64,000 nucleotides of DNA, from the NCBI GenBank assembly GCA_963760795.1, contig CAVXEP010000005.1, forward strand, positions 1-64,000. Direction: 5' to 3'. The translations under genes were made by a program, and so were the position numbers. Below the pieces are notes generated by a model. That model was not told the origin of the DNA. It worked only from the letters and a program-made list of their open reading frames with translations, and did no database searches. Source of the DNA: an uncultured delta proteobacterium (GTDB lineage Bacteria; Desulfobacterota; Binatia; UBA9968). Of this stretch, positions 9,121 through 62,021 are shown piece by piece; position 1 is the stretch's first letter; each line of letters begins with the position of its first letter.

Positions 9121-9123
9121 AGA

Positions 9124-10176: not shown

Positions 10177-10549
10177 TACTGCAACGTTGGCGCCGCAGCA
10201 GCCGATCTTGCTCGAGACCGAGCGCCAGCTTACGGAATATTTCTCCGGCACAAGAACCGGCTTCGATCTTCCGCTTCAGCCCGGCGGCAGCGAGTTTCAG
10301 AAGAAGGTCTGGCGCGCCTTGAGAGAGATACCGTTCGGTCAAACCAGGAGCTATCTCGATCTGGCAAAGGCGATCGGCTCCGCCAAGGCCGCTCGCGCCG
10401 TTGGCGCCGCCAACGGCAAGAATCCTTTGTCGATCATCGTGCCCTGTCATCGGGTCGTCGGCGCGGACGGATCGCTTACCGGCTTTGCCGGGGGGATCGC
10501 GACGAAAGCCGCGCTTCTGGCTCTCGAAACCCGTTCCACTGTTGTATAA
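10058..10549 (+). CDS. ogt: Methylated-DNA-protein-cysteine methyltransferase
   Basis: SPVGKL, FQKKVW, ARAVGAANGKNPLSIIVPCHRV; AAGGAG RBS before the TTG start. Confidence 0.93.
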   Translation: MKLLYKEFESPVGKLKLVANSNALVAVLWERDLPNRVKLDTATLAPQQPILLETERQLTEYFSGTRTGFDLPLQPGGSEFQKKVWRALREIPFGQTRSYLDLAKAIGSAKAARAVGAANGKNPLSIIVPCHRVVGADGSLTGFAGGIATKAALLALETRSTVV

Positions 10550-10574
10550 ATGAATTGCGGCGAGAAATTTTCCG

Positions 10575-12859: not shown

Positions 12860-12988
12860 AACGACGTGGAAAATCTTTGGCGATTTCTAGCAACCAATTT
12901 GTCCGTCAAGCGATCAAGAGCCGATCATGCAGGACACTTCGGCAAGCGAAAACTCTTTCATTTGTGAGATTTGCAATAGGAGGATGAT

Positions 12989-13264
12989 ATGGCCGTGTCT
13001 TGTGAACATCTGTCGGGTTTGAGCCCAGCGGACTTTCCCCAACAAACGACTCCCAACGCATGTGAGGAGTGTCTGACGGAGGGAACGTTTTGGGTCGCGC
13101 TGCGCGAATGCCAATCCTGCGGTCACGTCGGCTGTTGCGATTCCTCGACCGGCAGGCACGCGACCAAACATTTCCATGACACGCAGCATCCGGTCATGCG
13201 CGCGCTGCCGCCAGCGGCTTGGATTTGGTGCTATGTGCACGAGGCACAGGGTACGCTGGGTTAA
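12989..13264 (+). CDS. UBP-type zinc finger protein
   Basis: CEHL...CEEC...WVALRECQSCGHVGCCDSS..HATKH; AGGAGG RBS. Confidence 0.88.
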   Translation: MAVSCEHLSGLSPADFPQQTTPNACEECLTEGTFWVALRECQSCGHVGCCDSSTGRHATKHFHDTQHPVMRALPPAAWIWCYVHEAQGTLG

Positions 13265-13513
13265 CTTCCACTTGCATCACGGTCAACCGGTGTCATGATC
13301 CCAGAAATGTAACCTGCCGTCATTGGCACGGATACTCAATCGATCGGATAGTCGTCGCTATCCCGCCATGTTCGCTCGAAATTGAGCCACTGGCTCTTTG
13401 ATTTAGCGTCTTAGGATCGCCATACGGTCAAGCCTGCCGGAGATTTAGCCGAGTTTACCCGCCAGTTCATCAGTCAATCGGCGCGCGAAGCACCCAACTC
13501 CTGATCGCTGGAG

Positions 13514-14851
13514 CTATTTCGCGTCGAGCGGCAGTGGCTTGTCCAATGCGATGACCAGGATCTGACTCACCTTGCCCTTGCCGATATTATTGCCCTGCTC
13601 GTCGTACTTGCTTTCTTCACTATCGAAATCGTTATCGTTGGCAACCGCGATGGTATTACGGTCGATGACGGTAACGCCCTCGATCTTCTCCGGCATTTCT
13701 TTGAATTGGTTCAAGTCGAGAACCAGCGTTTTCGGCAGCACACGAATTCCCCCACTGGCGGGATCGTCCAGTGCTTCTAAACTCGGCGAGGTATTCGGAT
13801 CGTCCCACTTGGTCTTGAGAACATTGGTCGCGCCAGCTAGGTCAACGGTGTAAAGTTTCGCGACCCAATCGGTGCGCTCCAAGATCAGTAGTGTCGTTGG
13901 ATTCAGATAAACCACGGCGGATAGTTTCATCTCATCTGGGCTCATCTTGGGTCTTGGATCGAACTCCGCGGCAACGTCGAAACGATAAACATATTCAGCC
14001 GTCACTTGCTCTTTATCCCGATCAAAAACTACGACACGGGTATTGCGCGAGGCATCGCCGATCTTGCGGTCGGGATTGGCCAGCGGGCTTTGCAGCACGG
14101 CATAGAGAGTTTTTTCATCGGCGCTCACCGCCAGCCCCTCGAAGCCGCGGTTGATTTTTCGTTTGCCGAAAATCGCCGGCAACGATTCTTGCACCGGATA
14201 GTCCGCGCCGGGCAGCTTGACACCCGCCGGCACGTAACGCTTGATTACCTTGCCGGTTTTGTCGGCGTGAATGAGCGACGGGCTATACTCATCGGCCAAC
14301 CAGAATTCGCCGGATTTCGTTCGGATCAACCCTTCGGTATCGAGGCCATTGACGTTGAAACCGAATTCCTTCTGCGCCGTGTAATCGTAGGGAGTTTCAT
14401 CGATGGTTTTGGCATTCGGCAGGCCGGTGATCGGCTTGCCGGAACGGCCGACAATCGGCACCGCCTCGACGATTTTGACCGCGCTGCCGTCCAACTTTAC
14501 TCGAACAATGGTGGGATTAAACTCGGGTACCCAGAATGTGCGTCGGTTAGCGCCATCGACTCGGATCTGGCCATTGGGGCCGCGGTCGGTGACCATCCAG
14601 AACTCGCCGGCGGCATCGTTGGCGCCGCGCCACAGATCGCTGCCAACCGAGCCCAACAGCACCTTACGATCATTGGCGACGCTCCCGGCAAACTTGGCGT
14701 TCTGAAAAACCTTGATGGATATTGGCGGAAACTGGGAGATCCCGACAATCCGCGCTTGGGCAAAGGCTTGATCGACCCCGATAGTGACCAGACAGCCGGC
14801 GATACCCAAGTAAACCGTTAGCCATCGAACTCGGACAGAAAGTAAAGTCAT
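13514..14851 (-). CDS. Secreted 'esterase-like activity of phytase' family beta-propeller
   Basis: Signal peptide, TDRGPN, LDTEG, ADEYSP, NRGFEGLA, EKIEG, NDNDF. Confidence 0.85.
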   Translation of the reverse strand: MTLLSVRVRWLTVYLGIAGCLVTIGVDQAFAQARIVGISQFPPISIKVFQNAKFAGSVANDRKVLLGSVGSDLWRGANDAAGEFWMVTDRGPNGQIRVDGANRRTFWVPEFNPTIVRVKLDGSAVKIVEAVPIVGRSGKPITGLPNAKTIDETPYDYTAQKEFGFNVNGLDTEGLIRTKSGEFWLADEYSPSLIHADKTGKVIKRYVPAGVKLPGADYPVQESLPAIFGKRKINRGFEGLAVSADEKTLYAVLQSPLANPDRKIGDASRNTRVVVFDRDKEQVTAEYVYRFDVAAEFDPRPKMSPDEMKLSAVVYLNPTTLLILERTDWVAKLYTVDLAGATNVLKTKWDDPNTSPSLEALDDPASGGIRVLPKTLVLDLNQFKEMPEKIEGVTVIDRNTIAVANDNDFDSEESKYDEQGNNIGKGKVSQILVIALDKPLPLDAK

Positions 14852-20521: not shown

Positions 20522-22360
20522 GGTTCTGCTGAAAAACCCCCTCAAGTTTTTTGTTTGTTCAGTTAAATCTACGTTGACAAGCGACGATATCGCCTTCATC
20601 GTTTTCTCATGAGCGTAAGAGCCGTCGCTGCACAGAGAAGCTTTTATCATACCGACTATCTTGCTGGAGATCTTTTCGGTCCAGCCAATCGCTACCGGTT
20701 GTTTCGGGAAAAGATCTGGCCCAAGCTTTTAGAGCTTTCCCCGAAACTTGAAGCGTTGTATTGCGCCGAGAACGGCCGGCCGGGGATCGATCCGGTGCTA
20801 CTTTGCGGAGTGACGCTGCTCCAGTTCATGGAGAAAGCAGCAGATCGCTCGGCCACCGAGCGCGTGGTGTATCATCTGGGTTGGAAGTACGCCTTAGATC
20901 TGGAACTGGATTACGCCGGGTTTCATGCCACGGTGTTAGTTTATTTTCGCGACCGGTTGGAAGACAACAAAGTCGAGCGGATGATCTTTGACGGGATAGT
21001 TAAGTTGCTGGTGGAGCTGGGATTGGTGAAGAGAAAGGGCAAGCAGCGGCTCGATAGCACGCATATCGTGGGGTACGTCAAGGCGATGAGCTTGTTGGAG
21101 TGCGCGATAGAGACGCTGCGCTTGGCGTTGGAGGATTTGAAAGTAAAAGTGGGGAGGAAAAAGCAGCCAGAATTTTGGGACAGGTTGTGGGAACTGTATG
21201 TAGAGAGCAAACTGGATTGGCGGCTAAACAAGACCGAGCGCGACCGCCGCTATCGGCAGTGTGGGCAAGACATGAGAGAGCTGCTGGAGTGGCTAGACGG
21301 AAACGATCCTAAGCTCGCTGGACGTGAAGCAGTGAAACTATTGCGGCGAGTCTTTGGCGAGCAGTTTGAGATGGTCGACGGAAAGCTTGAGCTCGCCCCC
21401 AAGCGACCGCCTCGCGCGGTGCAGAACCCCCATGATTCCGATGCGCATTATGCCGATAAGAGGAGCAAGCAATGGATCGGCTACAAGGTGCATGTAACCG
21501 AGACTGTCGATCCTCAACAACCGATCAAGAAAAAGGGCGAGCCCACCGACCATTTCATCACCGAGATGCTGACCGTCGAAGCGGCCCAGGACGAGAAGGC
21601 TGGCTTGACCGAGACGCTCACAAGAGAACAAGCGCACCATGAGATCGAACCCCGGGCGATCTACACCGATGCAGGTTATGTGACCGAGCACACCTTAACG
21701 CAGGCGGAACAAAACGGCATGGAGTTATTAGGACCGACGCGTCCCGATCCTCACAAGGGACCCTACAATAGCGATGCGTTCCATGTCGATATCAACGAGC
21801 GCCAGGCGGTTTGTCCTCAGGGCAAGCTCAGCACGCAGTGCAGCCGCATCAAAGATAACTATATGGGAACCGAGTACTATCGCATCGAGTGGGGCAATCA
21901 ATGCAATAGCTGTCCGGTACAAAAGCAATGTACGCGGTCCAAGAGTGGACGGAGAACTTTGGTCGTTGGACTGCGCCATGATCTGGTCGAGCAGCGGCGC
22001 AGAGAAATGAAACAGAAAGGTTTCTCCAAATCCATGCATCCGAGAAACGGGATTGAGGGAACCCACAGCGAGTTGGTGCGTGGGCACGCGATGAGACGGA
22101 CGAAATATCGGGGCTTAAGCCGGGTCGGTTTATCGAATTACTTCATAGGTGCAGCTTGCAACGTAAAACGATATCTAAATCTACTCGCGTTTCAGATGAG
22201 AACGCCGCCTCTGAGCCCCGCTTAAGGGCGGAGCGCAGCTCATTTTCCTGGCTATGGCTTCGTTGAGGGTGAAACTTTCTCTGGCGTAACATTATTTGGC
22301 GATGACCACTGTTTACTAGCGGCGGTCGCGAATCAAATTCAGGGGTTTTTCAGCAGAACC
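20522..22360 (+). mobile_element. Complete IS1182-family-like insertion sequence
   Basis: 19-bp perfect TIR GGTTCTGCTGAAAAACCCC (20522-20540; 22342-22360) flanked by direct repeat TATATT (20516-20521; 22361-22366). Confidence 0.9.
20609..22225 (+). CDS. DDE transposase (IS1182-like)
   Basis: GRPGIDP, QRLDSTH, WIGYKVH, YTDAGY, CPQG...CNSCP...C Zn insertion, RNGIEGT; 538 aa, uninterrupted. Confidence 0.92.
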   Translation: MSVRAVAAQRSFYHTDYLAGDLFGPANRYRLFREKIWPKLLELSPKLEALYCAENGRPGIDPVLLCGVTLLQFMEKAADRSATERVVYHLGWKYALDLELDYAGFHATVLVYFRDRLEDNKVERMIFDGIVKLLVELGLVKRKGKQRLDSTHIVGYVKAMSLLECAIETLRLALEDLKVKVGRKKQPEFWDRLWELYVESKLDWRLNKTERDRRYRQCGQDMRELLEWLDGNDPKLAGREAVKLLRRVFGEQFEMVDGKLELAPKRPPRAVQNPHDSDAHYADKRSKQWIGYKVHVTETVDPQQPIKKKGEPTDHFITEMLTVEAAQDEKAGLTETLTREQAHHEIEPRAIYTDAGYVTEHTLTQAEQNGMELLGPTRPDPHKGPYNSDAFHVDINERQAVCPQGKLSTQCSRIKDNYMGTEYYRIEWGNQCNSCPVQKQCTRSKSGRRTLVVGLRHDLVEQRRREMKQKGFSKSMHPRNGIEGTHSELVRGHAMRRTKYRGLSRVGLSNYFIGAACNVKRYLNLLAFQMRTPPLSPA

Positions 22361-22990
22361 TATATTATAGCCTGACCCTCATCCCCTCACTCATCCCCTC
22401 AGATCACTGCTCACATTTGGCAACTCGGTTCAGGTGTCCTACATCAAACCGAGCAAAACTTTTTTCCTAAGTTACCGTCGATAATTTTTAACCACTTCGT
22501 GGTAGCCAGGATTCTGGCCAAATAGAATCTTTCAGCGAATGCTTCTGAACTTCGACCGCACCTGCCAGGAAACCCTCACAGGGAGAGTTTCGGTTGATAC
22601 TTTCAAGCGGCTCACGCATTCGTCCTTTGACCTGATTGCACCGACGATACATGGTTTCCAGGCAGAATTGTCACCCCATCTATCGGAGCTGGCTCCCGAA
22701 AGTTTGCTTGTTTCACCTAAAATTACCTGACCGTCCCCCAGCACCAAAAGGTATAACGATTGCTCATTTTTAACGAATTGCGGACGGTACTCATATGTCT
22801 ACCTAAGACATCTCGTTTAAGATTCAACGGTCTCGGGGCAGACCTTATTGAGTCACATCGAGAGCATGGAATTTTTTAAGAACGATCTACTGACCCCTAT
22901 ATGTCGAAGACACCGCGACTTTCGAAAGATACGATTAATCAGCCAAAGCGAGTAGTCATCGAGATCGGCAAACGGGACGCGAGTAAAGTT

Positions 22991-24244
22991 ATGACACGAT
23001 TGAGCTGGGTATTTGCATTCTTATTGCTATCGAGTTGCGGAAAAGTTCTTGGAGTCAAACAAACTCCTGAAATCGCCGTTGGCGAGTCGACTTTCTTTCG
23101 TACCATTGAAGCGCATACCGATGCACCTATGACGGGCGGAAATCGAATTGACGTTCTCCTAAACGGCGATGAAACTTTCCCCGTTATGATCGCTGAAGTT
23201 AGAAGGGCGAAATCAACAATTACATTCGCCCAATATCTTTACGAAGACGGTGCCATTGCCCGCGATTTGGCTGCTGCTTTCGCTGAACGATGCCGTGCAG
23301 GTGTTAAAGCGGAGATTCTTCTAGATCACCACGGATCGAGTAGCGCTCCGTCCGAAATCATCGCTACCATGAAAGACGCTGGTTGTAATGTTCATTACTT
23401 TCGCCAAATTGACGCTCAAGGAATTATTTTTCCATGGAAGCTGTTACGATATAATTATCGCAGCCACCGGCGAATCTTGGTGATCGACGGTCGAGTTGGC
23501 TTTACCGGCGGATACGGAATAAGCGAAGCATGGACTGGCAATGGCCGAAAGCCGGAACACTGGCGCGATACCAACGCCCGAATAGAAGGTCCAGTCGTCA
23601 GATTCCTGCAGGCGGCGTTTGCCGAGAGCTGGCTTGAAACGACTGGCATTGCCATAGGCGGCGACGGCTACTTCCCACACCTTGAATCAAGTGGAAATCT
23701 GACGGCCCAAATCGTCAAGAGTTCACCTACAGGCGGCAGTTTTCAAAACTACATGCTTTTTCTGCTATCGATCAACTCAGCGAAGAAATCGGTTTTGATC
23801 ACCAATCCATACTTTATTCCAGATGAGGTCATGACAGATGCCTTACTCAAGGCGAAGGGTCGCGGCGTTCGTGTAGTGGTATTACTTCCCGGCAAGATCG
23901 ACAGCCAGTTTACCTATACGGCCAGCCGCAGCCACTACGGAAAACTGCTTCTCGGCGGCGTCAAGGTATATGAGTATCTAGTCGCGTTGATGCACGCAAA
24001 GACCATAGTCGTGGACGGCGTTTGGGCCACGATTGGCAGCACAAACTTCGATAACCGTTCTTTCGCGTTAAACCAAGAAATCAATGTTACAGTTTATGAT
24101 AAAGTCACTGCTGAAAGTCTTGAACGAATCTTTAACGACGACCTAAAATACTCTAAAGAGATAACTTACGAGGCGTGGCAATCTCGAAGTATTTTCGAGC
24201 GATTATTCGATTTCTTTTCATTTCCGATCAGGGAGCAACTCTAA
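22991..24244 (+). CDS. Cardiolipin synthase-like phospholipase D (lipoprotein); start may be as far up as 22901
   Basis: LLSSC lipobox, GNRIDVLLNG, HRRILVIDG (variant HKD), WRDT, NPYF, MHAKTIVVDG, GSTNFDNRS. Confidence 0.85.
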   Translation: MTRLSWVFAFLLLSSCGKVLGVKQTPEIAVGESTFFRTIEAHTDAPMTGGNRIDVLLNGDETFPVMIAEVRRAKSTITFAQYLYEDGAIARDLAAAFAERCRAGVKAEILLDHHGSSSAPSEIIATMKDAGCNVHYFRQIDAQGIIFPWKLLRYNYRSHRRILVIDGRVGFTGGYGISEAWTGNGRKPEHWRDTNARIEGPVVRFLQAAFAESWLETTGIAIGGDGYFPHLESSGNLTAQIVKSSPTGGSFQNYMLFLLSINSAKKSVLITNPYFIPDEVMTDALLKAKGRGVRVVVLLPGKIDSQFTYTASRSHYGKLLLGGVKVYEYLVALMHAKTIVVDGVWATIGSTNFDNRSFALNQEINVTVYDKVTAESLERIFNDDLKYSKEITYEAWQSRSIFERLFDFFSFPIREQL

Positions 24245-25640: not shown

Positions 25641-25814
25641 TTTTCATTTCTTCGGCAGTAAACGCCCACTGGGTGCGTCTCTTTTTTTCTGGCGGTCGCA
25701 CGGGCTTTAGGTGTAATACTCAATTATTATTAGAGGTGAAGCCCACACTCCGGATTTCGAGCAGAAAACTTAACGCAGCAGCTGCCACAACGGTGTCACT
25801 GAGGGGTGACCGTC

Positions 25815-26903
25815 ATGCTCATTTTTCTTTCCTACGCATCTGAACAGCGTGACGTTGCTGAGGAGATCAAGCTTGCCCTTGCTAGTTTCGGTCATCAAGT
25901 CTTTTTTGATCGAGATAGCCTTCCCATTGGGGATGAATACCACCTTCGGATACGTAATGCGGTCGAGGAGAGCGAAGCGTTCGTGTTCCTCATCAGTTTC
26001 CAGTCGGTCGCCCAAGGTTGCTACGCGCTAACCGAATTAAAGTATGCGCGAGAGAAATGGCCAGATCCCCGAGGAAAAGTACTGCCAGTCATGATCGAAA
26101 AGATCGAATATCGACACATCCCGCCTTATTTGAAGGCGATAAGTGTTCTTGAACCCGAGGGTAACGCTCCTGCGGAAGTAGCCACTGAGATCCAAAAGTG
26201 GGGCAAGAAGGGAATTCAGGATTCTGGTCGTTTCGGTAGTCAGACACTAAAGCGTAATGGCGTCCGCTTTATTTCCGTGTTGGCTCGACCCCGAAACTTT
26301 ATCAAATCTATCGATTACAACGCTGACGATACATTAATCGAAGCGATCTTGTTCAGCGTATTTGTTAGTATTGTCAATCTTACCATCATGCTTCCAGCAT
26401 ACCGGCTGGCGCACGTCAAAGCGGAGACTTTCACGTATGCGATGATCGATACAGTTTTTACCTGCGTTTTTTGGTTTTTATATGGGTCGGTCTATCATTT
26501 TTGCGCTAGGCTCGTCGGCGGGCGGGGCACTTATCAGAGCAGCCTAGTAGCCTTCCTTTACCTGACGGCTTTCAGTGTCGTCTCTGGAGCCTTGTCTTTA
26601 CCAATGTCACTTAAGGCTGTTTCCTGGAGCATGGAGAGTGCGGACGCGCCGACTCTTAGCCAATGGCTAACCTTAGGTGATCAAATTGTTAAATCACCGA
26701 TAAGTTTAATCTGTGCATTATTAGGGACTGCAGTGATTTTATACCGCTGGGTATGCACAATCGGGGTGTTTATGATTATTCATGATGTTGGTCGTGTAAA
26801 AGGTGTGTTAATTGGCGTGATGGGTGCGGGTTTGTCGTGGGTCGTATTTTTCACCATCGAAAAACCTTCTCTTGCGCTTTTCTGGCGAGCCTTTTCTTCC
26901 TAG
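25815..26903 (+). CDS. TIR-domain protein with a C-terminal multi-pass (Yip1-like) membrane domain
   Basis: IFLSYA, VFFDRDSL.IGD, FVFLIS, YALTEL with the putative catalytic Glu; then about 5 hydrophobic segments with a GGRGTY loop. Confidence 0.8.
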   Translation: MLIFLSYASEQRDVAEEIKLALASFGHQVFFDRDSLPIGDEYHLRIRNAVEESEAFVFLISFQSVAQGCYALTELKYAREKWPDPRGKVLPVMIEKIEYRHIPPYLKAISVLEPEGNAPAEVATEIQKWGKKGIQDSGRFGSQTLKRNGVRFISVLARPRNFIKSIDYNADDTLIEAILFSVFVSIVNLTIMLPAYRLAHVKAETFTYAMIDTVFTCVFWFLYGSVYHFCARLVGGRGTYQSSLVAFLYLTAFSVVSGALSLPMSLKAVSWSMESADAPTLSQWLTLGDQIVKSPISLICALLGTAVILYRWVCTIGVFMIIHDVGRVKGVLIGVMGAGLSWVVFFTIEKPSLALFWRAFSS

Positions 26904-30196: not shown

Positions 30197-33100
30197 TCAC
30201 TCATGTCTCTCCTCGGCAGCGGTGTTCGCGCTTTCCCGCGCAAGCTGTTTCTGAACTTCGTCCTCCGTCATCCCATCCATCTCGCGCAGTATCTGCGCGA
30301 GTGCTTCATCGCTAGCCTGCTTTCCTTGCTTCTGCATGACGATGGCCGCCATCTCGGCAACCGTAGGCGATTCAAATAGGGTGCGCAACGGGAACTCAAT
30401 GGAAAAAGCGCTACGGATGCGCGAAACGATTTGCGTCGCCAACAATGAGTGTCCGCCCAGATCGAAGAAGTTGTCGTACACACCAACCTTAACGAGCTTG
30501 AGCACTTCGCGCCAAATTGCCGCGAGCGTTTCTTCGGTCGCTGTGCGCGGCGCTTGATAGACGTTCTCCAGTTCGCGCCTACTTTGATCCGGCGCCGGCA
30601 ACGCTCTGCGGTCTACTTTACCGCTCGGTGTCAACGGCAAGTCATCCAGCAGCACCAAAGCGGAAGGAATCATGTACTCCGGTAGTTTCTGCTTGAGATA
30701 GTTTTTTACTTCCGCAGCGTCGAACGACCCTTGCGGCTGCGCCACCACATAACCCACGAGCCGCTTATCACCCGGCTCATCTTCTCGCACCGCCACCACC
30801 GAAGTCTGAACCGCTCGGTGTTGACCGAGCACTGCCTCAACCTCTCCCAGCTCAATGCGATAACCGCGAATCTTTACTTGAGTGTCGATTCGCCCGAGAA
30901 ACTCGATGTTTCCATCCGGAAAATAACGAGCGAGATCGCCGCTCTTATATAAGCGCTTGGCCGGTGCTGCGCTGAAGAAATGATAAATGAACTTCTCCGC
31001 CGTCAGTGCCGGCTGGTTTAGATAACCTCGCGATAATCCCACGCCGCCAATGTGCAGCTCTCCCGCCACGCCAATGGGAACCGGCTCCAAGTAGCGATCG
31101 AGAATGTAAATTCGCGTATTCGCAATCGGCCGGCCGATGGGCACCACCGGACGATCGCTCTCTGTCCTGCACTGCCAGGCGGTTACGTCGATGGACGCTT
31201 CCGTCGGCCCATATAAATTATGCAGCGCCGCGCCGCTGCGCGCAAAGAAGCGTTGCTGCAATTCGTAGGATAACGCCTCGCCGCTACAGAAAACTTGTCT
31301 GAGAGTAGTGCAACTCTCAGCGCCGCTTTCCTGCAAAAACACCCCGAGCATGGAGGGAACGAAATGGAGCGTGGTGATGCATTGCGAGTTGATCAGCTCG
31401 ATAAGATAAGCGCTATCTCGATGCCCGCCCGGCCGAGCCATGACTAGACAAGCGCCGCTGATCAATGGCCACAACAACTCCCACACCGATACGTCAAAAG
31501 TAAATGGAGTTTTCTGCAAAACACGATCCCCCGGCGTGAGCCGATAAGCCTCCTGCATCCACTGTAAACGATTACGCAAGCCGCCATGAACATTGAGCAC
31601 GCCCTTGGGCCTGCCGGTCGAGCCCGAGGTATAGATCATGTAGGCGACGTTATGGCCGTCCACTTGGTTTTGAAGATTTTCTTCGCTCTGCTGCGAAAGC
31701 TCCTCCCAAGCGTTGTCCAAGCAGATTCTTTGATCCGTAAAGCCGCTAAGAAACGTGTTGAATCGTTCTTGGGTCAGTATCAGCGGCGTGGGGATGTCTT
31801 GGAGCATGAACTTTAGTCGATCCGTTGGAGAGTCAGGATCCATCGGCACATAGGCGCCACCGGCTTTCAGAACGGCAAGAATGGCGATCGCCATCTCCAA
31901 AGATCGCTCCATGCACACCGCTACCAAGCTCTCCGCTTGCACTCCTCGCTGGCGTAGGTAGTGAGCGAGTTGGTTAGCTTTCTGGTTTAACTCCCGATAG
32001 GTCAGTTGCTGATGTTCAAATATAAGCGCCACCGCGTCCGGGCACCGCTTCGCCTGGGCTTCAAAAAGCTCATGAACGTATTTATCCGAAGGAAAATCTA
32101 GCTGGGTGTCGTTCCACTTCTCGAGTAACTGCTGTCGCTCGGGCGCGCTGAGCAAAGCCAGCCGATCAATCGGTTGCTCGGGACCGGCGATAATGCTTTC
32201 GAGCAGATTAAGAAAATGCTCGGTCATGCGAACGATTGTCCGCTCATCGAATAAATCCGTATTGTAGGAAAAATTACCGCGCAGCTGGCCACTGCTTTCT
32301 TCCAGAAAGAGTTGTAGATCGAACCTTGAAATACCGCTGTCGAGGTCGAGCGGGGAGACTGACGTGCCGGAAAGCACAGGAGCGACGTGCGGCGTGTTCT
32401 GGAAAGCAAATGCCACATCGACAATGGGACTACGGTTTAGCTGCCGTTCAGGATGGAGTTCTTCGACCAGTTTTTCGAAGGGTAGATCCTGGTGCGCATA
32501 GGCCGCCAAACAGACCAGCCGCACTCGGTTCAACAACTCCAAAAAGCTTGGCTCGCCGGAAGTATCGACTCGAAAAACTAAAATGTTGAGGAAAAAACCA
32601 ATGAGGTTCTCAACCTCAGCGCGATTCCGGCCGGCAACCGGGCATCCGATCGTGATGTCATCTTGCGATGTGTAGCGATGCAATAATGTCTGAAACGCCG
32701 CCAGCAAAGTCATGAAAAGGGTTGCGCCGCGGTCGCGGCTGAGCCGCTTGAGCTTGGCGGAAAGGTCCAGCGAAAGGGTAAAGCATTGCTTCGCTCCGCG
32801 ACTCGATTGAACCGGCGGGCGCGGCCGGTCCGTCAATAAATGTATGGGAGTCGTTCCGTCTAGCTGTCGGCGCCAATACTCCGACTGCTTCTGCATCAGG
32901 TGGTTTTGCAGTCTGTCCCTCTGCCAACTGGCATAATCAGCGTATTGAATAGCAAGTTTCGGCAGCGAAACTTGCTTGCCTTGGCAAAACGCTTCATAGC
33001 AATCCGCCAGCTCGCGCCAAAGTACGCCCATAGACCAACCGTCGAAGACGATGTGATGCACAGCAAACAGCAAAACATGATCGTCATCGCTGCGACGAAG

Positions 33101-35388
33101 CAATGAAACCCGCAACATGGGACCACGACTCAGATCGAAGGGTTGCCGTGCCAGGGCGGCGCAATAGCGCCGCAACACCGCCTCGTCTTCAAGCACCGAT
33201 TTACGTTCGCCGAGATCGACTACGTTGAGCGAGGTAGTCAAGTTTGCCAGAACCTTCAGGTTTGGCTTACCGTCCACCGACTCGAAAACTGTTCGGAGAA
33301 CTTCATGGCGCGCGATAATTTCATTAAGACTTTGCTCCAGCGCGCTGATGTTCAGCTTGCCGGCGATCTGAAAAGCGCTAAGCAAATTGTATGCGGGATC
33401 TCCGGGATGGAGCTGGTCTAAAAACCAAAGTCGCTGCTGTGAAAAGGAAAGTTCTCGTGGCGGCTTGCTTGAGACAGAGCACAGGGCAGTTTCATTCGCA
33501 GGTGCCGAAGATCGCGCGGTCGCCTCAAGTAATCGAGCGATACCTGCAACGCTGGGAGATGCAAAAAGGTTCGCCATGGGGATTTCCCGTTCGAACGTTG
33601 CAGTTAAGCGGGTCATGACACGTCCCAAGGTTAACGAGTCGCCGCCGAGTTCGAACAAATTATCCTCGATCCCCACCGGCTCGATCCCAATACATTGGGA
33701 AAAGATTCGAGCGACGGTATTTTCTAAGTCGGTGCGAGGAGCGACAAATGGCGTATCGAGTTCCGGCCGGCGACTGTCCGGATCAGGTAACGCCCGGCGG
33801 TCGATCTTGCCGTTCACGGTTAACGGCAAAGCGTCTAGAAAAACGAACGTCGACGGAATCATGTACTCGGGCAGCTTGGTCTGCAGCAGACGGCGCATTT
33901 CTCTGGTGCTGGGTGCGGCTGGGGATGTGAGATAAGCGACCAATCGAGCCTCTCCCGAGTCCCTCACTTTTGCGACTACTACGGCATCTTGAATTCCCAC
34001 TTGCTCGCGCAGAGTTTTTTCCACTTCGCCGATCTCTACACCGTAACCACGAATCTTGACGCGGAAATCCTTGCGGCCCTTGTGGATAAGGCAGCCATCG
34101 GCAAGCATGAGGCCGAGATCGCCCGTGTGATAGATACGTTGATCGCCGTGTTCGGGGTCGGTTTTGAATTTCGCCGTGGTTAGTTCCGGATCACGCCAAT
34201 AGCCTGGCGATAGATATTTGCTACGAACTACGATTTCGCCGATTTCGTTGTAACCGACCGGATCACCTTGTTCGTCCAGCAATACGATTTCTTTATCTCG
34301 GGCAGCATAACCGACCGGAACGTCATCGCCGGGAACTTTGCTATCCCTCTCGATAAAATACTCGGCCAGCAAGTGTGTCTCACTAGAATTCAAACCGTTA
34401 ACTAAGAGACTGTATGCGGAGAAATATCGTTTATAGAGATCGACATCGGTTTTACAAACCGTTTCACTGCTCAACCTAAGCAATCGTAGATCGGGAAATC
34501 GCTCCGCTTCCGTCAGAACTTCGCAGAGGTTACGAAATAATGGAGCGGCAATTGGCAAGATCGTTATTTTCTCCTGCGCGAGCCAACGGCTCAGACCGCC
34601 GAACCCTTCTCTGTTAACGTCGAACGGCAAGAGCGCGGCACCATTCAACAAGGCACAAAAACTCCCGATGATGGCATTTGACGTACCGGCACAATAAGAT
34701 GTGGAATTCGGTCCTGGGCACAAAATCCGCCGGCATCGCTGCGTAACATCGAGATATGCAGAACCATCCTGTGATTAGTGATGACTCCCTTGGGGCGCCC
34801 GCTGGAGCCCGATGTGTGAACAATGAAGGCCAGCGTGTCAGGTAAGATTTCCTGGCAAAGATTGTCCAACGGAAGCCTGTCATCGACTGATTCGAGCTCG
34901 ATCACCGACTGACCGTCTCGCATGAGTTCATTGGCTAACGAAAGATTTTGCCGGTTGGTCATTGTTAAATCCGGCGAGCAATCGTCTAGGATCGCTTCGA
35001 GTCGCGCTTTGGGCAGCACAGAGTCTAGCAGCACGAAGAATCTGCCGGCTTTTAGTACGCCGATCATTGCCGCGATTTGCTCTACGCCTTTCTCAAACAG
35101 CAGCGCGACAGGCATGTCTCGGTTGCCGCGCTGCGCCGCTACGACTCGTGCGACTCGATTGGCGATCCTGTTTAGCTCCGCATAGGTGACAACTCGTTTA
35201 CCCGTCTTGATCGCGGTATGATCGGGGTATCGCTTTACGATCTTCTCAAATCGTGCCGGGATCGATGATTCGACTTCTTCAATGGGAAACTCGGCGAGCG
35301 TTCCCGACGGATGAAAACACCGATCCCGGATCGCCTGCTGCTCCGGCGGAAGTTTGCAGCTATTTTTAAGTGAATCCGTCATGTTCAT
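30197..35388 (-). CDS. NRPS A-T-C-A-T, indel near 34695
   Basis: A1 (TSGSSGRPKG, TGDLG, NGKIDR), T1 GGDSL, C HHIVFDGWS, A2 (FDVSVWE, YGPTE), T2 GGHSL; no TE or reductase; ORFs 34645-35421 and 30197-34723 join. Confidence 0.9.
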
Positions 35389-35741
35389 ATCCAATTGAGT
35401 TCGTGCCCGTTCTTCAGCCAAAGGGCTTCATCCTCACTTCCGAGATACCCATATCCTAACTGAGAACGCGATCGAGCTTCAATGTTGAATATCAGTGAAA
35501 CAACTAATGTTTATGATGGTAAGACTATTCTTGTAGCGCGATTGCTGAGTGAATCGGCGATACGAAGAGGTAAATTAGCGGGATTGTAATGATAGCATCC
35601 GACCTTCATGCTCGATAAAGTCACCGCAAACTCCCGCATTGGATCAGAGTAGCAAAGGCCCCGGTCACGTCGAGACCCAATTCGAACGGCAGCTGCCATG
35701 ATTGATCCTCCCCATGAAATGTGATTTTTGTTTTGTTTATC

Positions 35742-55336: not shown

Positions 55337-55390
55337 TAAGTAGCTGATTTTCAAACGACGCAGGTTTCCATCGGTGGCATGTTTTTGGCT
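55337..55390 (+). promoter_or_regulatory. Candidate sigma54 (-24/-12) promoter with an upstream IHF site
   Basis: TGGCATGTTTTTGGCT (GG-N10-GC) at 55375-55390; reverse-strand AATCAGCTACTTA at 55337-55349 matches WATCARNNNNTTR. Confidence 0.5.
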
Positions 55391-55477: not shown

Positions 55478-58400
55478 ATGGACGCACCTAAATATCAAAA
55501 AAGTGATCCGGCGATTCTTCTGCTCAACGAGATCGATATCCTGTTGGCGCAGACGCGTCTGATGGAGCTCTACCTCAAGCAAGCGCAGGCGACGGCGGCC
55601 AATGAAAATGCGCGAATTCACGAACAGTATGAATCCCAGTTGGCGACCCTGCGCGCCGATCTCGCCGACAAAGAGCGGCAATTGCAACAACGCCCAGTCA
55701 TCGCCGTCGAGCGCAATCTGAGCGAAACCATCGAACTGCTGCAACGCGAGCTCGGCGAAAAGCAACAAATTCTTTCCAGCCAGGAAGTCACATTCCAGCG
55801 CTCAACTAGCGAAATCGCCGCGCTGCAAGGCCGTATCGCCCAACTGGAAGCCGACAACAGCGCTGCCGTAAGCGCCGCTCGCGCGTCCAACGCAATCCGC
55901 GAAGGCCTTACCGCCGACGTCGCCGCAATCAATCAGGAGCTGGAGAGAAACCGGCGCGAGTTGCACCACCAGCAGCTCGCCGCGTTGGAACTCGAAAACA
56001 GCTTGCGCGAGCAGCTGCAATTGCTGCAAACCCAAGTCGGCGAAAAACAAGCCTACGCCTTTAGCGCCGACGACAAACTAGGCAAAGCGCAGCAAGAGAT
56101 CGCGGCGTTGCATCAGCATCTGGGCTCGCTTCACACAATTCAAGATGAACTTCAGTCGAGAGCGGCGCGTGAGCTCGAACAGACGCGCGGCCGTTTTGAA
56201 AATGAACTGGCGAGCCTGCGCAGCGCCCTCGCCGAACGCGATCGCTCGGTGCTGCAGAACCAGGTCGCACTACTTGAAATCGAGCGGGGTCTAAGAAGCG
56301 AGATCGACACCCTGCGCAGCGAGCTCGAGCAAAGACAAGCCGCCCTCGGACTACAAGACGAAGATCTGCGCGCCGCCGGCGCGCGGATCTCTGCGCTCCA
56401 ACAAACAGTAGCCGACCTTGAGTTGGCCCATCGCCAAGCAACCGCCGCCACCGCAGAAATGGATATGCTGCGGCGCTCATTGGCCGAAGAGGTAGCGAAC
56501 CTCCAGCATGAGGTCGCGGTCAAAGAAAAGGAACTGACCCAGCGCTACGAAGCGGTGACCGCCGTCGAGCTCGCCTTGCACGGCCGGATACAAGTTTTGC
56601 AGCAGGAACTCGCACGCGCGCACGAAGCCTCGAATGCCCAAGAAGTCGCGCTGCAAAACCACGCCATTGAGACCGCCGCCTTACAAAGCCGTATTGCTGA
56701 CCTGGAACGCTCCCAAGCCGACACCAGTTCGATCGACGCCGCCCGCCAGCAACTGGAAAGCGATCTTAATCGCCTGCGCACAGCCCTCGGACAGAAGGAA
56801 TATTTACTGGCCGAACGTGAGCGCGCCATCAGCGATCTCGAGGCGCGCTTCGGCGCAGAAATCACCACGCTGCAGCAACAGCTGGAGCAAGAACGCAGCG
56901 CCGCCGCGCATACCCATGACGAAGTACTCCAAGCGCGCAGCGAACTCGCCGCCAGCCGCGAGAAACTTGAAGCCCAGCTCAGCCATAAAGACGCTGAAAT
57001 CGGCAGCCTGCGCGCCAGCGCCAATCAACAAAGCGAGCAACTATCCAACCAAGTTAATGACTTGCAGCGGCAACTGGCCGAAGGCGAAACTACCGTCGCC
57101 AACCTGGAAGCGCGCTTGGGCGTGGAAATCGCCACGCTGCAGCAACAGCTGGAGCAAGAACGCAGCGCTGCCGCGCGAACCCACGATGAGTTACTCCAAG
57201 CGCTCAACGAACTCGCCGCCAGCCGCGAGCAACTTAAAGCTCAGCTCCGCCATAAAGACGATGAACTCGGCAGCCTGCGCGCCAGTGCCTTTCAACAAAA
57301 CGAGCAACTGTCCAACCAAGTTAGTGACTTGCAGCGGCAATTGGCCGAGCGCGAAACTACCGTCGCCAACCTAGAAGCGCGCTTGGGCGTGGAAATCGCC
57401 ACGCTGCAGCAACAGCTGGAACAAGAACGCAGCGCTGCCGCGCGAACCCATGACGAGTTACTCCACGCCCGCAACGAACTCGCCGCCAGCCGCGAGCAAC
57501 TTGAAGCCCAGCTCCGTCATAAAGACGCTGAAATCGGCAGCCTGCGCGCCGGCGCCATTCAACAAAACGAGCAACTGTCCAACCAAGTTAGTGAGTTGCA
57601 GCGCCAACTGGCCGAGCGCGAGACGACCGTCGCCAACCTGGAAGCACGTTTGGGCGTGGAAATTACCACCTTGCACCAGCAGCTGGAGCAAGAACGCACA
57701 GCCGCCGCGCGAACCCAAGACGAACTACTCCAGGCGCGCAACAAATTCGCCGCCACTCGCGAACAACTTGAAGCCCAGCTCAGCCATAAAGACGATGAAA
57801 TCGGCAGCCTGCGCGCCGGCGCCATTCAACAAAACGAGCAACTGTCCAACCAAGTTAGTGAGTTGCAGCGCCAACTGGCCGAGCGCGAGACGACCGTCGC
57901 CAACCTGGAAGCACGTTTGGGCGTGGAAATTACCACCTTGCACCAGCAGCTGGAGCAAGAACGCACAGCCGCCGCGCGAACCCATGACGAGTTACTCCAC
58001 GCGCGCAACGAACTCGCCGCCACTCGCGAGCAACTTGAAGCCCAGCTCCGTCATAAAGACGCTGAAATCGGCAGCCTGCGCGCCGGCGCCATTCAACAAA
58101 GCGAGCAACTGTCCAACCAAGTTAGTGACTTGCAGCGGCAATTGGCTGAGCGCGAGGCTAGCGTCGCCAACCTGGAAACGCGCGTGGGCGCAGAAATCAC
58201 CACCCTGCACCAGCAGCTGGAGCAAGAACGCAGCGCCGCCGCGCAAACCCATGTCGAACTACTCCAGGCGCGCAACGAGCTCACCGCCACTCGCGAGCAA
58301 CTTGAAGCCCAGCTCCGGCATAAAGACGATGAACTCGGCAGCCTGCGCGCCAGCGCCATTCAACCAGAGCGAGCAACTGTCCAACCGCATCGATGAACTG

Positions 58401-60339
58401 CAATTTCAATTGGCCGAGAAACAGCTGTTGGCCGAGCAATACGCAATTGAACTCGATCATTTACGAACTTCCGTCACCAGGCTCAACGAGCAGCTCAACG
58501 AAGAAGCCACGAATCATGCGCAGGCCCTCGGCCTTTGGCAAGACTCCCAGGCCCAACACAGCACTGAGATCGCTCAGCTAACAACCGCGCGCGACGAGCT
58601 ATTATATAGTCAGACCGCGCTGGAAGTTCAGCTCGACCAGGCACGCGGCGCCAACGCCGCTTTGCGCGGCGAGCTGCAGGAATCGAGAAACCGCGTTGGC
58701 GAATTTGACGCGCTGCTAAAAAGCAGCCAAACCGCCATGGCCGATGTCGCAGCCGAGCGCGCTCGGCTGCGCACCGAACTGGAAAACCTTGACGCGCTCC
58801 ATAAGCAGACCAAGGCCGATGCCGCCCGCGATCTTGCCCAGGGCCGCGACGCCTTGGAAAGCGAACTCAGCGCCCTGCGCAACGAGCTGCAACAAAAAGC
58901 CTGGTCGCTGGCACAACACCAAGCCAGTGTCGAGAACCTGGCGCAGATCCACCGCGAGCAGATGCGCAAACTGGAAGCGCGGCTGACCGAGCAACAACCG
59001 GTCACGGAACAGCAGGCGCGAGAATTGGCACAGGCTGTCAGCCAAGCCAATGCCTTGCGGCTTCAGGTACGAAGAACTCCAAGCCGCCCTGCGCCAAGCC
59101 GAGGCCGACGGCGCAAGCCAGGCCGAGCAGATTCGTCAGGAATACGCCGCCCGGGTGGAAACCGTCAACTCGCTGCTGGAAACAAAGTCGGCGGAAATGG
59201 CCAACAGCGGCGCGGCCCGAGCCAACGTCGAAGAGTCGTTGCGTGGCGAACTCAGCCACCTGCGCAGCGAAATGCAATCACGCACCGCGGCGCTGCAGAG
59301 CCGGGAGGACGAACTCAACCGCGTGCGCGCGGAAATGACCTCGGTGCAGAATCGTCTCGTGCAGTTGGAATCGATCAGCGCGCGCACCGAAAGCGAAGCG
59401 CGCGAGATCAGCCAAGCCAAGAGCGGTCTGGAGAGCGAACTCACCGCCCTGCGCAACGAACTGCAACAAGGATCTTCCGCGGTGGCGCAACATCAGACAG
59501 CGATGGATGATCTTGCAGCGCGCCATCGCAGCCAGGTGGAACAACTTGAAGCGAATCTACGCGAGCAGCATAGAGCGAGCGAAGAGCATCGACAGGAAGT
59601 TGACCAAGCGCAAGCGCAGATCGCCCTGTTGCACAGCCGGATCGAAGAGCTGCAAAACGCATTGCAGCAGACCGAGTTGAGCGCCAACAGCCGCACCGAA
59701 CAGCTGCGCCAAGAGTATGCAGCGCGCGTCGATGCGCTCAAACGCGAACTGGGCGAACATTCCGCCCAGCTTCAGGACCGCGCCAGCGCTAATTCCGACA
59801 GCGAGCAAGTTCTACACAGCGAGATCGCCCGGCTGATCGGCGAAGCCCAAGAACGAAATCAGATCCTGGAAAGCCGCAACGATGAATTGGTGCGGGTTAA
59901 AAACGACCTGGACGGTTTGGCCGAGCGCTTCAGTCAATTAGAGTCGCACGCCGTCCAAGCCGAAAGTAGCGCCAGCGGTGAAGCCGCGAGTATGCGCATC
60001 GGGTTTCAGGCGCAGTTAGCGCTGCTGCAGGCCGAACTCAGTCAGAAGGAATGGGCCCTGGAAGAGCGCCAAGCGATCATCGCCGGAATCGAACAAGAAC
60101 ATCGCCGGCAGCTCGACGCCTTGCGCCAGCAGTTAGCCGAGGAAGAACAGTCAACCGTGCCGGCCGACAACGGATTTGTCATGGGCGATCCCAACTTGAC
60201 GGAAGCCCAGCGGGAAAAGCTACTCAAACTCGACGACATGGTCAAAGCGATGCGCACCGGTGAGGATCACAGCGTTCCAGCATTCTCGGGACGGCGTTGG
60301 CAAAGCGGCTTCGGATGGAAGCGGCGCTGGCGCTCGTGA
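55478..60339 (+). CDS. Giant coiled-coil protein (~1,619 aa after removing two +1 indels near 58365 and 59069)
   Basis: Three consecutive E/Q/L/A/R-rich ORFs; 4,862 nt minus 2 gives 1,620 codons; the first indel is evident by comparison with sister repeats; no catalytic motif or TM segment seen. Confidence 0.8.
56831..58430 (+). repeat. About six tandem 267-bp (89-codon) intragenic repeats
   Basis: Unit starts at 56831, 57098, 57365, 57632, 57899, 58166; consensus like ANLEARLGVEI.TL.QQLEQER.AAARTHDELL.ARNELAA.REQLEAQL.HKD.EIGSLRA.A.QQ.EQLSNQV. Confidence 0.95.
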
Positions 60340-60384
60340 CGCCTGGTAAAATCTGGCTAACAGCCGAAAGCGGCAACGCGAAGG

Positions 60385-61149
60385 ATGACGATGATTCAAA
60401 CACAACGAGTAACCAGTGGAATCAAAGGCTTGGACCCATTGATCGAAGGCGGCTTCCCCAAGGGTCGGTCGATCCTGGTGACCGGCGAGCCAGGGACCGG
60501 TAAGACTATTTTTGCTCTCCAGTTTCTCGCCGAGGGATTAGCACGCGGCGAAAAATGCATCTTCGTCACCGCCGACGAAGGACCTCTGGACGTGCTCGAA
60601 CAAGCGGCGTCGATGGGTTGGGACTTCGAGCGCCATGCCGAGCAAAAAGATTTGTCGATCCTTAACGCCGGAACCTATTTAAGTTCACTGCCGGGCGCCG
60701 GCCGTGAGCGCCAATTCGACATTCAGAAAGCGGTGAGCGACCTGGCGATCTTCGTCAACCAGCTTGGCGCCGAGCGATTGGTTCTCGATCCCGCCGGGCC
60801 GTTTGTCCTGTTGCGCGACGTCGCCACACGTATCCAGGATCAAACCCGCTTGCTGATCAAATTGCTGCGTTCTTCGATGTCGACCACCAACCTTCTCACC
60901 TCCTATGCAGTACCGAGAACCGGCGAGCGCAGCATGCATGGCATCGAAGAGTACATGGTCGCCGGCGCCATCGTCTTGGAGATGATTTGGCGCAACGATG
61001 GCGCGATGGGGCGCAGCCTGATCGTCGAAAAAATGCGCTGTACCGATGTCAAACCGACCCAACTGGAGTTCGACATCGTCAAGGGTGAGGGTTTGGTGGT
61101 ACTGCCGAGGCCTGACTACCGGTCGCAGAAAATCTCTAGTCATGGCTGA
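60385..61149 (+). CDS. Single-domain KaiC/RAD55-family ATPase 1
   Basis: SGIKGLD.LI.GGFP, GEPGTGKT, TADE, LVLD, VEKMR. Confidence 0.88.
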   Translation: MTMIQTQRVTSGIKGLDPLIEGGFPKGRSILVTGEPGTGKTIFALQFLAEGLARGEKCIFVTADEGPLDVLEQAASMGWDFERHAEQKDLSILNAGTYLSSLPGAGRERQFDIQKAVSDLAIFVNQLGAERLVLDPAGPFVLLRDVATRIQDQTRLLIKLLRSSMSTTNLLTSYAVPRTGERSMHGIEEYMVAGAIVLEMIWRNDGAMGRSLIVEKMRCTDVKPTQLEFDIVKGEGLVVLPRPDYRSQKISSHG

Positions 61150-61924
61150 CGAATGCATCGCCACCGGCATCACCGGCTTGGATGCGCTGCTGCGCGGTGG
61201 AGTTAGCCGCGGGCGCACTTATCTCTTTGCCGGCGAAGCGGGCACCGGTAAAACCATCGCCTGTTTGCAGTTAGTCACTACGGGCCTCAAAGCTGGCGAT
61301 AAGGCGGTCTACGTTACCGTCGACGAACGACCTTCGGAGATCTTGGAGGCCGCCGCGGCATTGGGTTGGGATCTCCAAACCTATATCCAAGAAAAGCAAT
61401 TGATCATCCTCGACGCGTCGCCCTACTTCGGTGCCCGCGGCGGCGGCGAAAAAGGCATCGATCCGCAAAAGATCGTCGCCGATCTCGGCAATTATGTCAG
61501 ACGCCTGGGCGCGACGCTATTGATTATCGATCCGGTAACGCCGTTTAGTCTCCCCCCCGACGCCAGTAGTCCAGCGCAAGATCAAGCGCGCACGCTGATC
61601 CAACTGGTGCAAACGCAGATTAGCGTCACTAACATTTTCACGGCGCAGCGTTGCCCCGACGGCGGCCCATCGTCAAGTGTGGCGATTGAAGAACATCTCG
61701 CCACCGGTGTGCTGGTATTTAAAATGACCGAAACCGCAGCCGGCTATGAGCGCACGGTAACCGTCAAAAAAATGCGCAGCATCGCCACCGCACCGGTGAA
61801 ATACCGCTTCACAATGCAAAAAGACCAAGGCATCGTCCTCGACCTGCCCTGCAGCCTGGCTACCGCATCGAGCGCGACGCCACCCATGTTCGAATACTTC
61901 GATCCGTCCACGCTGCGAAACTAG
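61142..61924 (+). CDS. Single-domain KaiC/RAD55-family ATPase 2
   Basis: TGITGLD.LL.GG, GEAGTGKT, TVDE, LIID, VKKMR; ATG 61142 overlaps the end of ATPase 1. Confidence 0.88.
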   Translation: MADECIATGITGLDALLRGGVSRGRTYLFAGEAGTGKTIACLQLVTTGLKAGDKAVYVTVDERPSEILEAAAALGWDLQTYIQEKQLIILDASPYFGARGGGEKGIDPQKIVADLGNYVRRLGATLLIIDPVTPFSLPPDASSPAQDQARTLIQLVQTQISVTNIFTAQRCPDGGPSSSVAIEEHLATGVLVFKMTETAAGYERTVTVKKMRSIATAPVKYRFTMQKDQGIVLDLPCSLATASSATPPMFEYFDPSTLRN

Positions 61925-61992
61925 CGGCCGGCGGGCGCGAAGAGCGCACCCGCCGTTGGAATCCGCGATTTCTCCCGGTTCAAGCGGTTTTC

Positions 61993-62021
61993 TTGACAGC
62001 CCGCCGAAGGATGCTTAAATT
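61993..62021 (+). promoter_or_regulatory. Sigma70-like promoter of clpB
   Basis: TTGACA-N17-TAAATT, then GGAG RBS before ATG 62046. Confidence 0.5.

Follow-up and report, generated by a model that had tools for sequence, protein, structure and literature searches.

We describe here a gene unit in which a coiled-coil rod protein is encoded directly upstream of KaiC-family ATPases, found in a 64,000-nucleotide (nt) stretch of DNA (hereafter the window) from an uncultured soil delta proteobacterium (GTDB lineage Desulfobacterota; Binatia; UBA9968; GenBank assembly GCA_963760795.1, contig CAVXEP010000005.1, positions 1 to 64,000 of the forward strand). The unit is conserved and lineage-restricted, belonging to one family of uncultured Thermodesulfobacteriota in which it occurs in at least 8 genera. 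By analogy with archaeal ArlH-ArlX, we tentatively read it as an ATP-controlled scaffold, a bacterial variant of the theme of KaiC-like ATPase plus coiled coil, an interpretation we regard as possible although somewhat short of probable. A literature search returned no paper on this unit.

The gene order is an aminotransferase gene reading leftwards, followed on the plus strand by the rod gene, KaiC1, KaiC2 and clpB. The rod gene (55478..60339, + strand) comprises 1,619 codons, which in this assembly are spread over three frames (55478-58366, 58368-59063 and 59065-60336, with the stop codon at 60337-60339) by two +1 shifts; in relatives it forms intact single open reading frames (ORFs). Judged from the sequence, its true start is 55478; an upstream ATG at 55379 falls within a conserved promoter-like element. 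KaiC1 (60385..61149, + strand; PF06745, 8.9e-56) is a single-domain KaiC-family ATPase that begins 45 nt behind the rod stop codon, or 51 nt if the second ATG, at 60391, is used. The latter, 6-7 nt behind GAAGGA, is likely the start and is preferred over 60385. KaiC2 (61142..61924, + strand; PF06745, 7.8e-49), a single-domain paralogue whose motifs are kept in alignment A4, overlaps KaiC1 by 8 nt. This arrangement agrees with an earlier note on this DNA, made from the letters alone, which had described two overlapping single-domain KaiC ATPases 45 base pairs behind the rod gene. Its further remark that kaiA, kaiB, gas-vesicle and flagellar genes are lacking nearby holds for all the ORFs scanned in the window.

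The rod module was searched for across the order, where it is present in 42 of 123 genomes (8 of 27 genera), all of them in family f1; it was not found in families f2 (0/5) and f3 (0/28). These and the following tallies include three unpublished genomes (G004, G479 and G493), on which nothing beyond the tallies depends. Across a phylum-wide sample of 401 genomes, the rod module was recovered only from the window's own genome, and KaiC1-like genes (E ≤ 1e-30) from 2 genomes. One further weak match to the rod-tail profile in this sample (G272) was rejected, the protein being neither coiled-coil rich nor next to a KaiC gene. Those relatives that are named are metagenome-assembled genomes (MAGs) with the titles uncultured delta proteobacterium, Thermodesulfobacteriota or Syntrophobacter sp. 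SbD2, some of them evidently labelled with the wrong phylum. Metagenomes from soil and peat show the lineage to be widespread: at least 120 KaiC1 matches are listed, all 77-95% identical.

KaiC1 lies directly 3' of the rod gene in 21 of 21 loci that include downstream DNA, and in 12 of 12 further loci from the genera g263, g266, g269, g272, g274 and g280 (a count for which L075 duplicates L050, and L085 has no rod), giving 33 of 33 examinable rod genes overall. The consistent upstream position of a coiled-coil gene, which the earlier note had proposed to check across genomes, is thereby borne out. KaiC2 is missing from 4/21 and 4/12 of these loci (at least 8), and a contig end truncates one additional locus. 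The note had pictured a hetero-oligomeric KaiC pair acting together with the rod; of this picture, the constant presence of KaiC1 stands, and an obligatory KaiC2 does not. Within the genus, the rod module and a KaiC1 orthologue (≥73% identity) share the same 20 of 25 genomes (G004 included). Their joint absence from G001, G002, G008 and G016, where the site is cut or unassembled, was not counted as loss. In the Syntrophobacter sp. SbD2 MAG (L036/L016), the rod lacks its 5' part, the frame begins in tRNA-gene-like sequence (..GGSNSRPS..) and the neighbouring genes are unrelated, reflecting an insertion at this position or else a chimeric assembly.

The site between the aminotransferase gene and clpB exists in three states. 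In G023, a genome of the same genus that is 97% complete, the two flanking genes are adjacent with nothing between them. Because this site is empty, rod, KaiC1 and KaiC2 come and go as one block. In G331, which belongs to another genus of the same family, a KaiC gene, then a REC-KaiC fusion and then a REC-histidine kinase occupy the interval ahead of clpB, and there is no rod. Family f2 (G029, G031 and G033) has KaiC and then REC-KaiC beside that aminotransferase gene, and a histidine kinase gene comes next in G029 and G031. These sister cassettes share the aminotransferase side of the site (in G331 also the clpB side), and their KaiC homologues share 43-47% identity with KaiC1 and KaiC2, but they differ in having no rod gene, no sigma-54-type element and a two-component output. 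The earlier note had regarded ATPases without a rod in relatives as the observation that would tell against it; such ATPases do occur, but only as these diverged homologues in sister genera. The REC-KaiC of G331 (L071:6499-7704, minus strand) keeps a Walker A motif (GSLGSGKS), reads DDD for the acidic pair and has no KMR arginine, and may be a half-dead KaiC.

Three such states (empty, rod plus KaiC, KaiC plus two-component system), together with a repeat array in the rod whose units are 90% identical, would also fit an accessory defence or mobile cassette that is present or absent between conserved flanks and carries rapidly expanding repeats. We consider this very improbable: the matches in PADLOC amount to noise from P-loops (mad8, 27 bits) and coiled coils (LmuB and JetC), no integrase or transposase was found beside the unit among the window ORFs scanned, and the position of the unit is stable across genera.

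The rod has the composition of a long coiled coil. It contains 8 prolines in 1,619 residues, A, L, E, Q and R together account for 63%, and its hydrophobic autocorrelation shows heptad periodicity (a value of 0.30 at lag 7, and peaks again at lags 14, 21 and 28). No match to a Walker A motif ([AG]xxxxGK[ST]) was found along its length and no membrane helix was detected, the highest 19-residue Kyte-Doolittle mean being 1.11, in keeping with the helical coiled-coil protein of about 1,600 residues, lacking both features, that the earlier note had described. Searches of Pfam, NCBIfam, PADLOC and the ESM Atlas assigned the rod to no known family, as the note had anticipated: the first three gave coiled-coil background only, and the ESM Atlas, queried with a 282-residue minimal rod, returned only generic coiled coils. 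Two Pfam families, DUF1664 and ADIP, pass their whole-protein cut-offs through summed weak matches, with 0 significant stretches. The protein does not belong with SMC, Rad50 or MukB, having no Walker A motif and scoring at most 76 bits against SMC models with cut-offs of 567-729, with matches restricted to the coiled coil of the intact rod orthologue searched. Nor does it reach the intermediate-filament or crescentin families (Rod_CreS scores 17.9 bits where 100 are required, and Filament no more than 17.7 where 40 are required).

Intact orthologues range in length from about 280 residues (282 in L049) to about 1,690 residues (L017, G007), and the giant size described in the earlier note is not a conserved property of the rod. 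The variation lies in the middle of the protein, which differs about six-fold in length as a result of repeat duplication. In the window, this part includes a tandem array of 267-nt (89-residue) units (56843..58386, + strand; Tandem Repeats Finder, 5.8 copies, 90% matches), which corresponds to rod residues 456-970; the 90% identity is at the DNA level. An internal duplicate of the C-terminal helix module was detected by hmmsearch with the A2 profile at 59164..59598 (+ strand; 59 bits, 2e-19), along with several weaker internal copies. Since such copies are found, the rod has grown by duplicating its own C-terminal module as well as the 89-residue unit.

Both ends of the rod are conserved. At the N-terminus, alignment A5 defines a head helix, MDxPKxxKSDPxxLLLNEIDILLAQTRLMELYLKQAQA (55478..55690, + strand), which AlphaFold2 models as a helix at residues 8-86 of a minimal relative (predicted local distance difference test, pLDDT, ~90). 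The C-terminal module (59737..60291, + strand; alignment A2) is built of a long helix, EIxRLIxEAQERNQILxxRNDELVRVK..FQAQLALLQAELSQKEWALEE.., from which a linker leads to a short helix. The long helix spans about 140 residues and contains two conserved blocks, EIDRLIxEAQERNQILQDRNDELVRVKAEMD and ERMRTEFQAQLALLQAELSQKEWALEE (alignments A1 and A2); the linker with the short helix is variable. In the AlphaFold2 model of this module, the two helices occupy residues 2-139 (pLDDT >90) and 156-174. The monomer models of the C-terminal module and of the minimal rod (predicted template modelling scores, pTM, 0.34 and 0.26) consist of long helices with no packed head in either, and the minimal rod is modelled as two helices joined by a floppy linker. 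A search of the C-terminal-module profile against 1.84 billion cluster representatives gave 202 proteins with E < 0.001 and 83 clusters with E < 1e-30, the matching proteins being 200-1,564 residues long.

The rod ends in a basic, tryptophan-rich tail, RRWQSGFGWKRRWRS (60292..60336, + strand), in which RRW...KRRW is invariant in A1 and A2 (consensus RRWxxGFGWKRRWKS). The K-R-R-W end recurs in 96 of the 150 family representatives listed, whose tails average a net charge of +5.7 and 3.4 aromatics per 16 residues, and the tail is disordered in the AlphaFold2 models. A tail with a net charge of about +5.7 and 3-4 aromatics could bind DNA or RNA, in which case the unit would be a nucleic-acid machine, a RecA-superfamily ring joined to a rod that tethers or positions a chromosome, plasmid or RNA granule. 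The membership of KaiC in the RecA/DnaB superfamily and a RecD2 helicase gene 3.5 kb upstream agree with this. However, no nucleic-acid-binding domain was detected, the RecD2 gene lies on the other strand with unrelated genes between, and the composition of the tail suits anionic lipids equally well, making this alternative quite improbable in our estimation.

KaiC1 and KaiC2 both match PF06745, the KaiC/RAD55/GvpD-type RecA-like family, well above its cut-off of 26.6 bits (189.3 and 166.6 bits, respectively). The best solved relatives of KaiC1 are the CI domains of KaiC (2e-45), followed by archaeal single-domain structures (2zts, 2.6e-36; 2w0m, 2.5e-30), with PH0186 and SSO2452 among its best relatives. 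Mapped on the alignment with KaiC CI, the GEPGTGKT sequence, D64-E65, D135 and R218 (the KMR arginine) are invariant in 15 KaiC1 orthologues, and KaiC2 retains the equivalent residues (alignment A4). We take these to be the Walker A motif, the catalytic acidic pair, the Walker B aspartate and an arginine finger; the D-E pair of KaiC1 aligns with the catalytic E-E of CI. Neither protein reaches the curated NCBIfam cut-offs for KaiC, ArlH/FlaH or RadA. They are single-domain proteins and fall far short of circadian KaiC (NF006799/TIGR02655; 133.6 bits against 408 and 91 against 546), and kaiB is absent among the window ORFs, kaiA not having been searched genome-wide. The score against ArlH/FlaH is 36 bits (cut-off 215), with no ArlI/ArlJ-type genes nearby, and the match to GvpD (PF07088, 24.4 bits) is confined to residues 26-63, the P-loop, with no gvp genes among the window ORFs. 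Weak matches to RecA, RadA and DnaB were also seen in Pfam and NCBIfam.

KaiC2 evolves faster than KaiC1 (45-92% versus 71-92% identity among orthologues) and has a C-terminal extension ending MFEYFDPS. In a KaiC tree, KaiC2 groups with the KaiC genes of the two-component cassettes of other genera (support 91/87), and KaiC1 falls outside this group (90/60). Since the root of the tree is a midpoint root and the position of the third KaiC (K3) is not settled, the groups are resolved but their order is not, and we claim no donor or order of duplication. At one locus (L046, G018:C13, 7466-8926), KaiC1 and KaiC2 are joined in a single open frame of 487 residues. Matches to its KaiC2 part fall in two frames, and the joined frame represents a natural fusion similar to a two-domain KaiC, or else a sequencing error.

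The pairing of rod and KaiC occurs a second time in the window's own genome (G000). On contig C3, a coiled-coil-rich protein of 612 residues that matches no Pfam family is directly followed by a third single-domain KaiC, 47% identical to KaiC1 (L025, minus strand, 8348-11015), and a CheA-type kinase gene (12271-14028) stands back to back with the pair. This second pair is kept in 8 of 9 loci of the genus, and the C-terminus of its rod (..AELREKSGRWKVRP) is also basic with tryptophan. Compared directly, the two rod types match with an E-value of 0.005, and the second rod scores 18.7 bits against the A2 profile, no better than coiled-coil background. In genus g274, locus L081 carries a CC3-like rod and a KaiC that is 55-58% identical to both KaiC1 and KaiC3, at the aminotransferase-clpB site; by sequence, it represents an intermediate form linking both cassettes. 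Further histidine kinase and response regulator genes lie near the pair on C3. On contig C29 (G000 C29:284192-286631), a double-domain kaiC, read in several frames, is followed by two kaiB genes, and because of these genes the organism has a KaiBC-type system besides its three single-domain KaiC genes.

The rod gene is preceded by a sigma-54-type -24/-12 promoter-like element, TGGCATGTTTTTGGCT (55375..55390, + strand), a 16-nt GG-N10-GC sequence 88 nt before the start codon and unique in the window (1 match versus 0.02 expected). Of 24 rod loci, 22 have its strict form, TGGCA[CT]G-N4-TGGC[TA], at a distance of 63-104 nt from the start codon (in one case 220 nt), and in the remaining two, one or two positions differ with GG-N10-GC kept. 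The 24 loci are those in which the start codon could be fixed; ten others (5' end missing, broken or unexamined) were left out. In an alignment of 15 upstream regions, the element forms an island of identity in otherwise diverged DNA. About 25 nt upstream of it lies a semi-conserved AT-rich element, TAAnTAnnTGATTT (55337..55350, + strand), which in our view looks IHF-like. The sigma-54 consensus is TGGCAC-N5-TTGCW-like and lies 12-24 nt before the transcript start; the -12 half of the present element reads TGGCT rather than TTGCW.

The same type of element precedes the second rod gene (strict form in 5 of 9 loci, relaxed form in 2 more). It was found neither before the KaiC gene of the two-component cassettes (0/4) nor at the empty site. 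The genome encodes rpoN and 26 sigma-54 activators, none of them in the window, and contains 20 matches to the relaxed pattern. A third copy of TGGCATG-N4-TGGCT, the only other one in the genome, lies on the minus strand at G000 C19:133839 before an ORF of 289 residues (L090:5882-6751), whose product has an N-terminal hydrophobic stretch and looks MlaA/VacJ-like by eye.

The two frameshifts of the rod gene were located by comparison with orthologous loci. The first is one extra base in the last repeat unit (58356..58369, + strand), and the second an extra A in CAGGT[A]CGAAGAA (59063..59069, + strand). Both were checked against contigs from four public runs over 58250-59400, most pieces of which are 90-99% alike; these short-read contigs come from relatives, not necessarily from the strain of the window. 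The first site is one letter shorter in bridging contigs of two runs (X1 and X5), and the second is one letter shorter in every covering contig of all four runs (three DNA libraries and one RNA library). Two other genes of the window are split likewise, acrB (1292-2587 and 2424-4439), whose halves are contiguous in Pfam coordinates (ACR_tran 1-415 and 415-1020), and a non-ribosomal peptide synthetase (NRPS) gene (30200-34723 and 34648-35421), which points to frequent single-base assembly errors. Of 22 related loci, those with a split rod gene all come from MAGs whose titles begin with MFD (4/9), with 0 among the 8 complete genes of other MAGs.

The pair of frameshifts could in principle mark the rod gene as a pseudogene decaying in this genome. 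Its three pieces stay open and conserved, however, and split rods are confined to the MFD MAGs, so that decay seems to us extremely improbable. Because the contigs of relatives do not have the extra bases and acrB and the NRPS gene are split too, both frameshifts are most likely assembly errors and the gene is intact in nature, consistent with the view in the earlier note that two indels needed repair.

To examine whether rod and KaiC1 have diverged together, pairwise distances were compared over 17 loci. Distances of the rod C-terminal module and of KaiC1 correlate with r = 0.84, as compared to r = 0.58-0.75 for either of them with the flanking genes. Given both flanks, the partial r for rod and KaiC1 is 0.66, a value reached by 0 of 2,000 permutations; the comparison value for the rod and either flank is 0.29-0.32. 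As a pattern in sequence distances, this correlated divergence supports a shared unit, and not contact as such.

Rod and KaiCs might instead be co-transcribed without being physical partners, the KaiCs forming a signalling module and the rod an independent intermediate-filament-like cytoskeletal protein that shares only their promoter. The cassettes of G331, G029, G031 and G033, in which KaiC and REC-KaiC stand beside the same aminotransferase gene without a rod (with a histidine kinase in three), can be cited for this, as can the weak, sub-threshold likeness of the rod to filament and crescentin rods. Perfect adjacency in at least 8 genera, joint loss, a rod-KaiC pairing that has arisen or been kept twice, and rod/KaiC1 distances that correlate beyond those of flanking genes all speak against it, and we judge it rather unlikely.

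In the scaffold interpretation that we favour, the rod would dimerise as a parallel coiled coil, with a length of about 240 nm in this genome, and KaiC1 would be a ring ATPase that docks on a conserved module of the rod. The nucleotide or phosphorylation state of KaiC1 would switch assembly, anchoring or partner binding of the rod, as ArlH does on the ArlX scaffold, with KaiC2 as an optional modulator. The cationic aromatic tail would anchor the C-terminus of the rod to an anionic surface provided by membrane lipid or by nucleic acid, and expression would be signal-dependent through a sigma-54 activator.

The closest parallel is the archaeal pair ArlH(FlaH)/ArlX(FlaX), in which FlaH binds the C-terminal domain of the coiled-coil scaffold FlaX (PMC5019145). 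Both systems combine a single-domain KaiC-like ATP-binding protein with a coiled-coil-containing scaffold encoded by a neighbouring gene. The archaeal pair, however, serves a type IV pilus-like motor with ArlI/ArlJ, for which no genes were found among the window ORFs, and FlaX has about 250 residues and an N-terminal membrane helix, whereas the rod has 280-1,690 residues and no such helix. The KaiC of the KaiABC and KaiBC clocks contains the CI domain that is the closest solved relative of KaiC1, with motifs kept and DE in place of EE, but it is a CI-CII tandem accompanied by kaiB, in contrast to the single domain of KaiC1 (about 250 residues), for which kaiB lies elsewhere in the genome.

Archaeal single-domain KaiC-like ATPases (PH0186, PH0284 and SSO2452) were reportedly proposed by Makarova et al. 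in 2017 to be signal-transduction hubs. They have the same domain, the same size and varying partner genes; the present unit differs in being bacterial and confined to one family, and in its partner, a variable-length rod with an Arg/Trp tail. Among coiled-coil proteins, Scy/FilP, crescentin and AglZ are proline-poor heptad rods with repeat-driven length variation, and some work together with P-loop ATPases (Scy with ParA). The rod is alike in its proline-poor heptads and its variation in length through repeats but differs in its conserved ends, and its partner is KaiC, not ParA.

Several points weigh against the scaffold interpretation. All synteny lies within one family in which the flanking genes are conserved too, and the loci are therefore not independent; the distance correlation could come from transfer of the cassette as a block among kin loci and not from contact. 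KaiC2 is dispensable, and the rods of genus g280 have no N-terminal head. The ideas about the tail and about binding draw on composition and conservation alone. Contigs from an RNA library (run X15) lie over 59017-59400, one of them covering 59017-59292, but are not proof of transcription. No rod-KaiC fusion was found among 65 matches to longer homologues, most of them about 460-540 residues (the size of double-domain KaiC) and nearly all with at most 35% identity, a point that we rate as weak. A predicted 1:1 complex of KaiC1 (A3) with the C-terminal 200 residues of the rod (A2) scored 0.00 in two runs made without controls, and is no evidence either way.

A bolder hypothesis, and in our opinion an unlikely one, is that the rod is a length-programmable tether or ruler of about 40-250 nm, adjusted by repeat expansion. 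Its conserved ends would be read by KaiC-type ATPases, and the rod would be switched on through sigma-54 and anchored by its Arg/Trp tail. If true, this would add to the cytoskeletal or positioning systems of bacteria a new class that is driven by KaiC and not by ParA/MinD or actin/tubulin-like proteins.

Downstream of the unit, a GC-rich inverted repeat lies directly 3' of the KaiC2 stop codon (61930..61954, + strand). It was recognised by eye, has no T-run behind it and is not among the results of a terminator scan. A sigma-70-like match, TTGACA-17-TAAATT (61993..62021, + strand; 10 of 12 positions, a consensus match only), precedes clpB. Because of the inverted repeat and this match, clpB is probably a transcription unit separate from the rod-KaiC genes. 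Elsewhere in the window, genes for a TIR-domain protein (25806-26900), a DDE transposase (20609-22222) and a PLD-like protein (22901-24241) lie close together and may form a small defence or mobile island. The segment 40478-44233 encodes an F420-0:gamma-glutamyl ligase, a CofD-like protein matching the first half of its profile only and a radical SAM protein; the short CofD match may mark another frameshift.

Bacterial single-domain KaiC-like ATPases are known mainly as clock or stress-response proteins. Such single-domain proteins are common and, to our knowledge, almost none has a known partner outside ArlH in the archaellum and GvpD in gas vesicles. The unit described here offers a defined candidate partner pair for a KaiC-like switch acting on a structural protein in bacteria. 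Its natural variants comprise rods of 280-1,690 residues, loci with and without KaiC2, a paralogous second pair and a two-component sister cassette, and this variation would readily allow one to study how such a switch acts on its structural partner.

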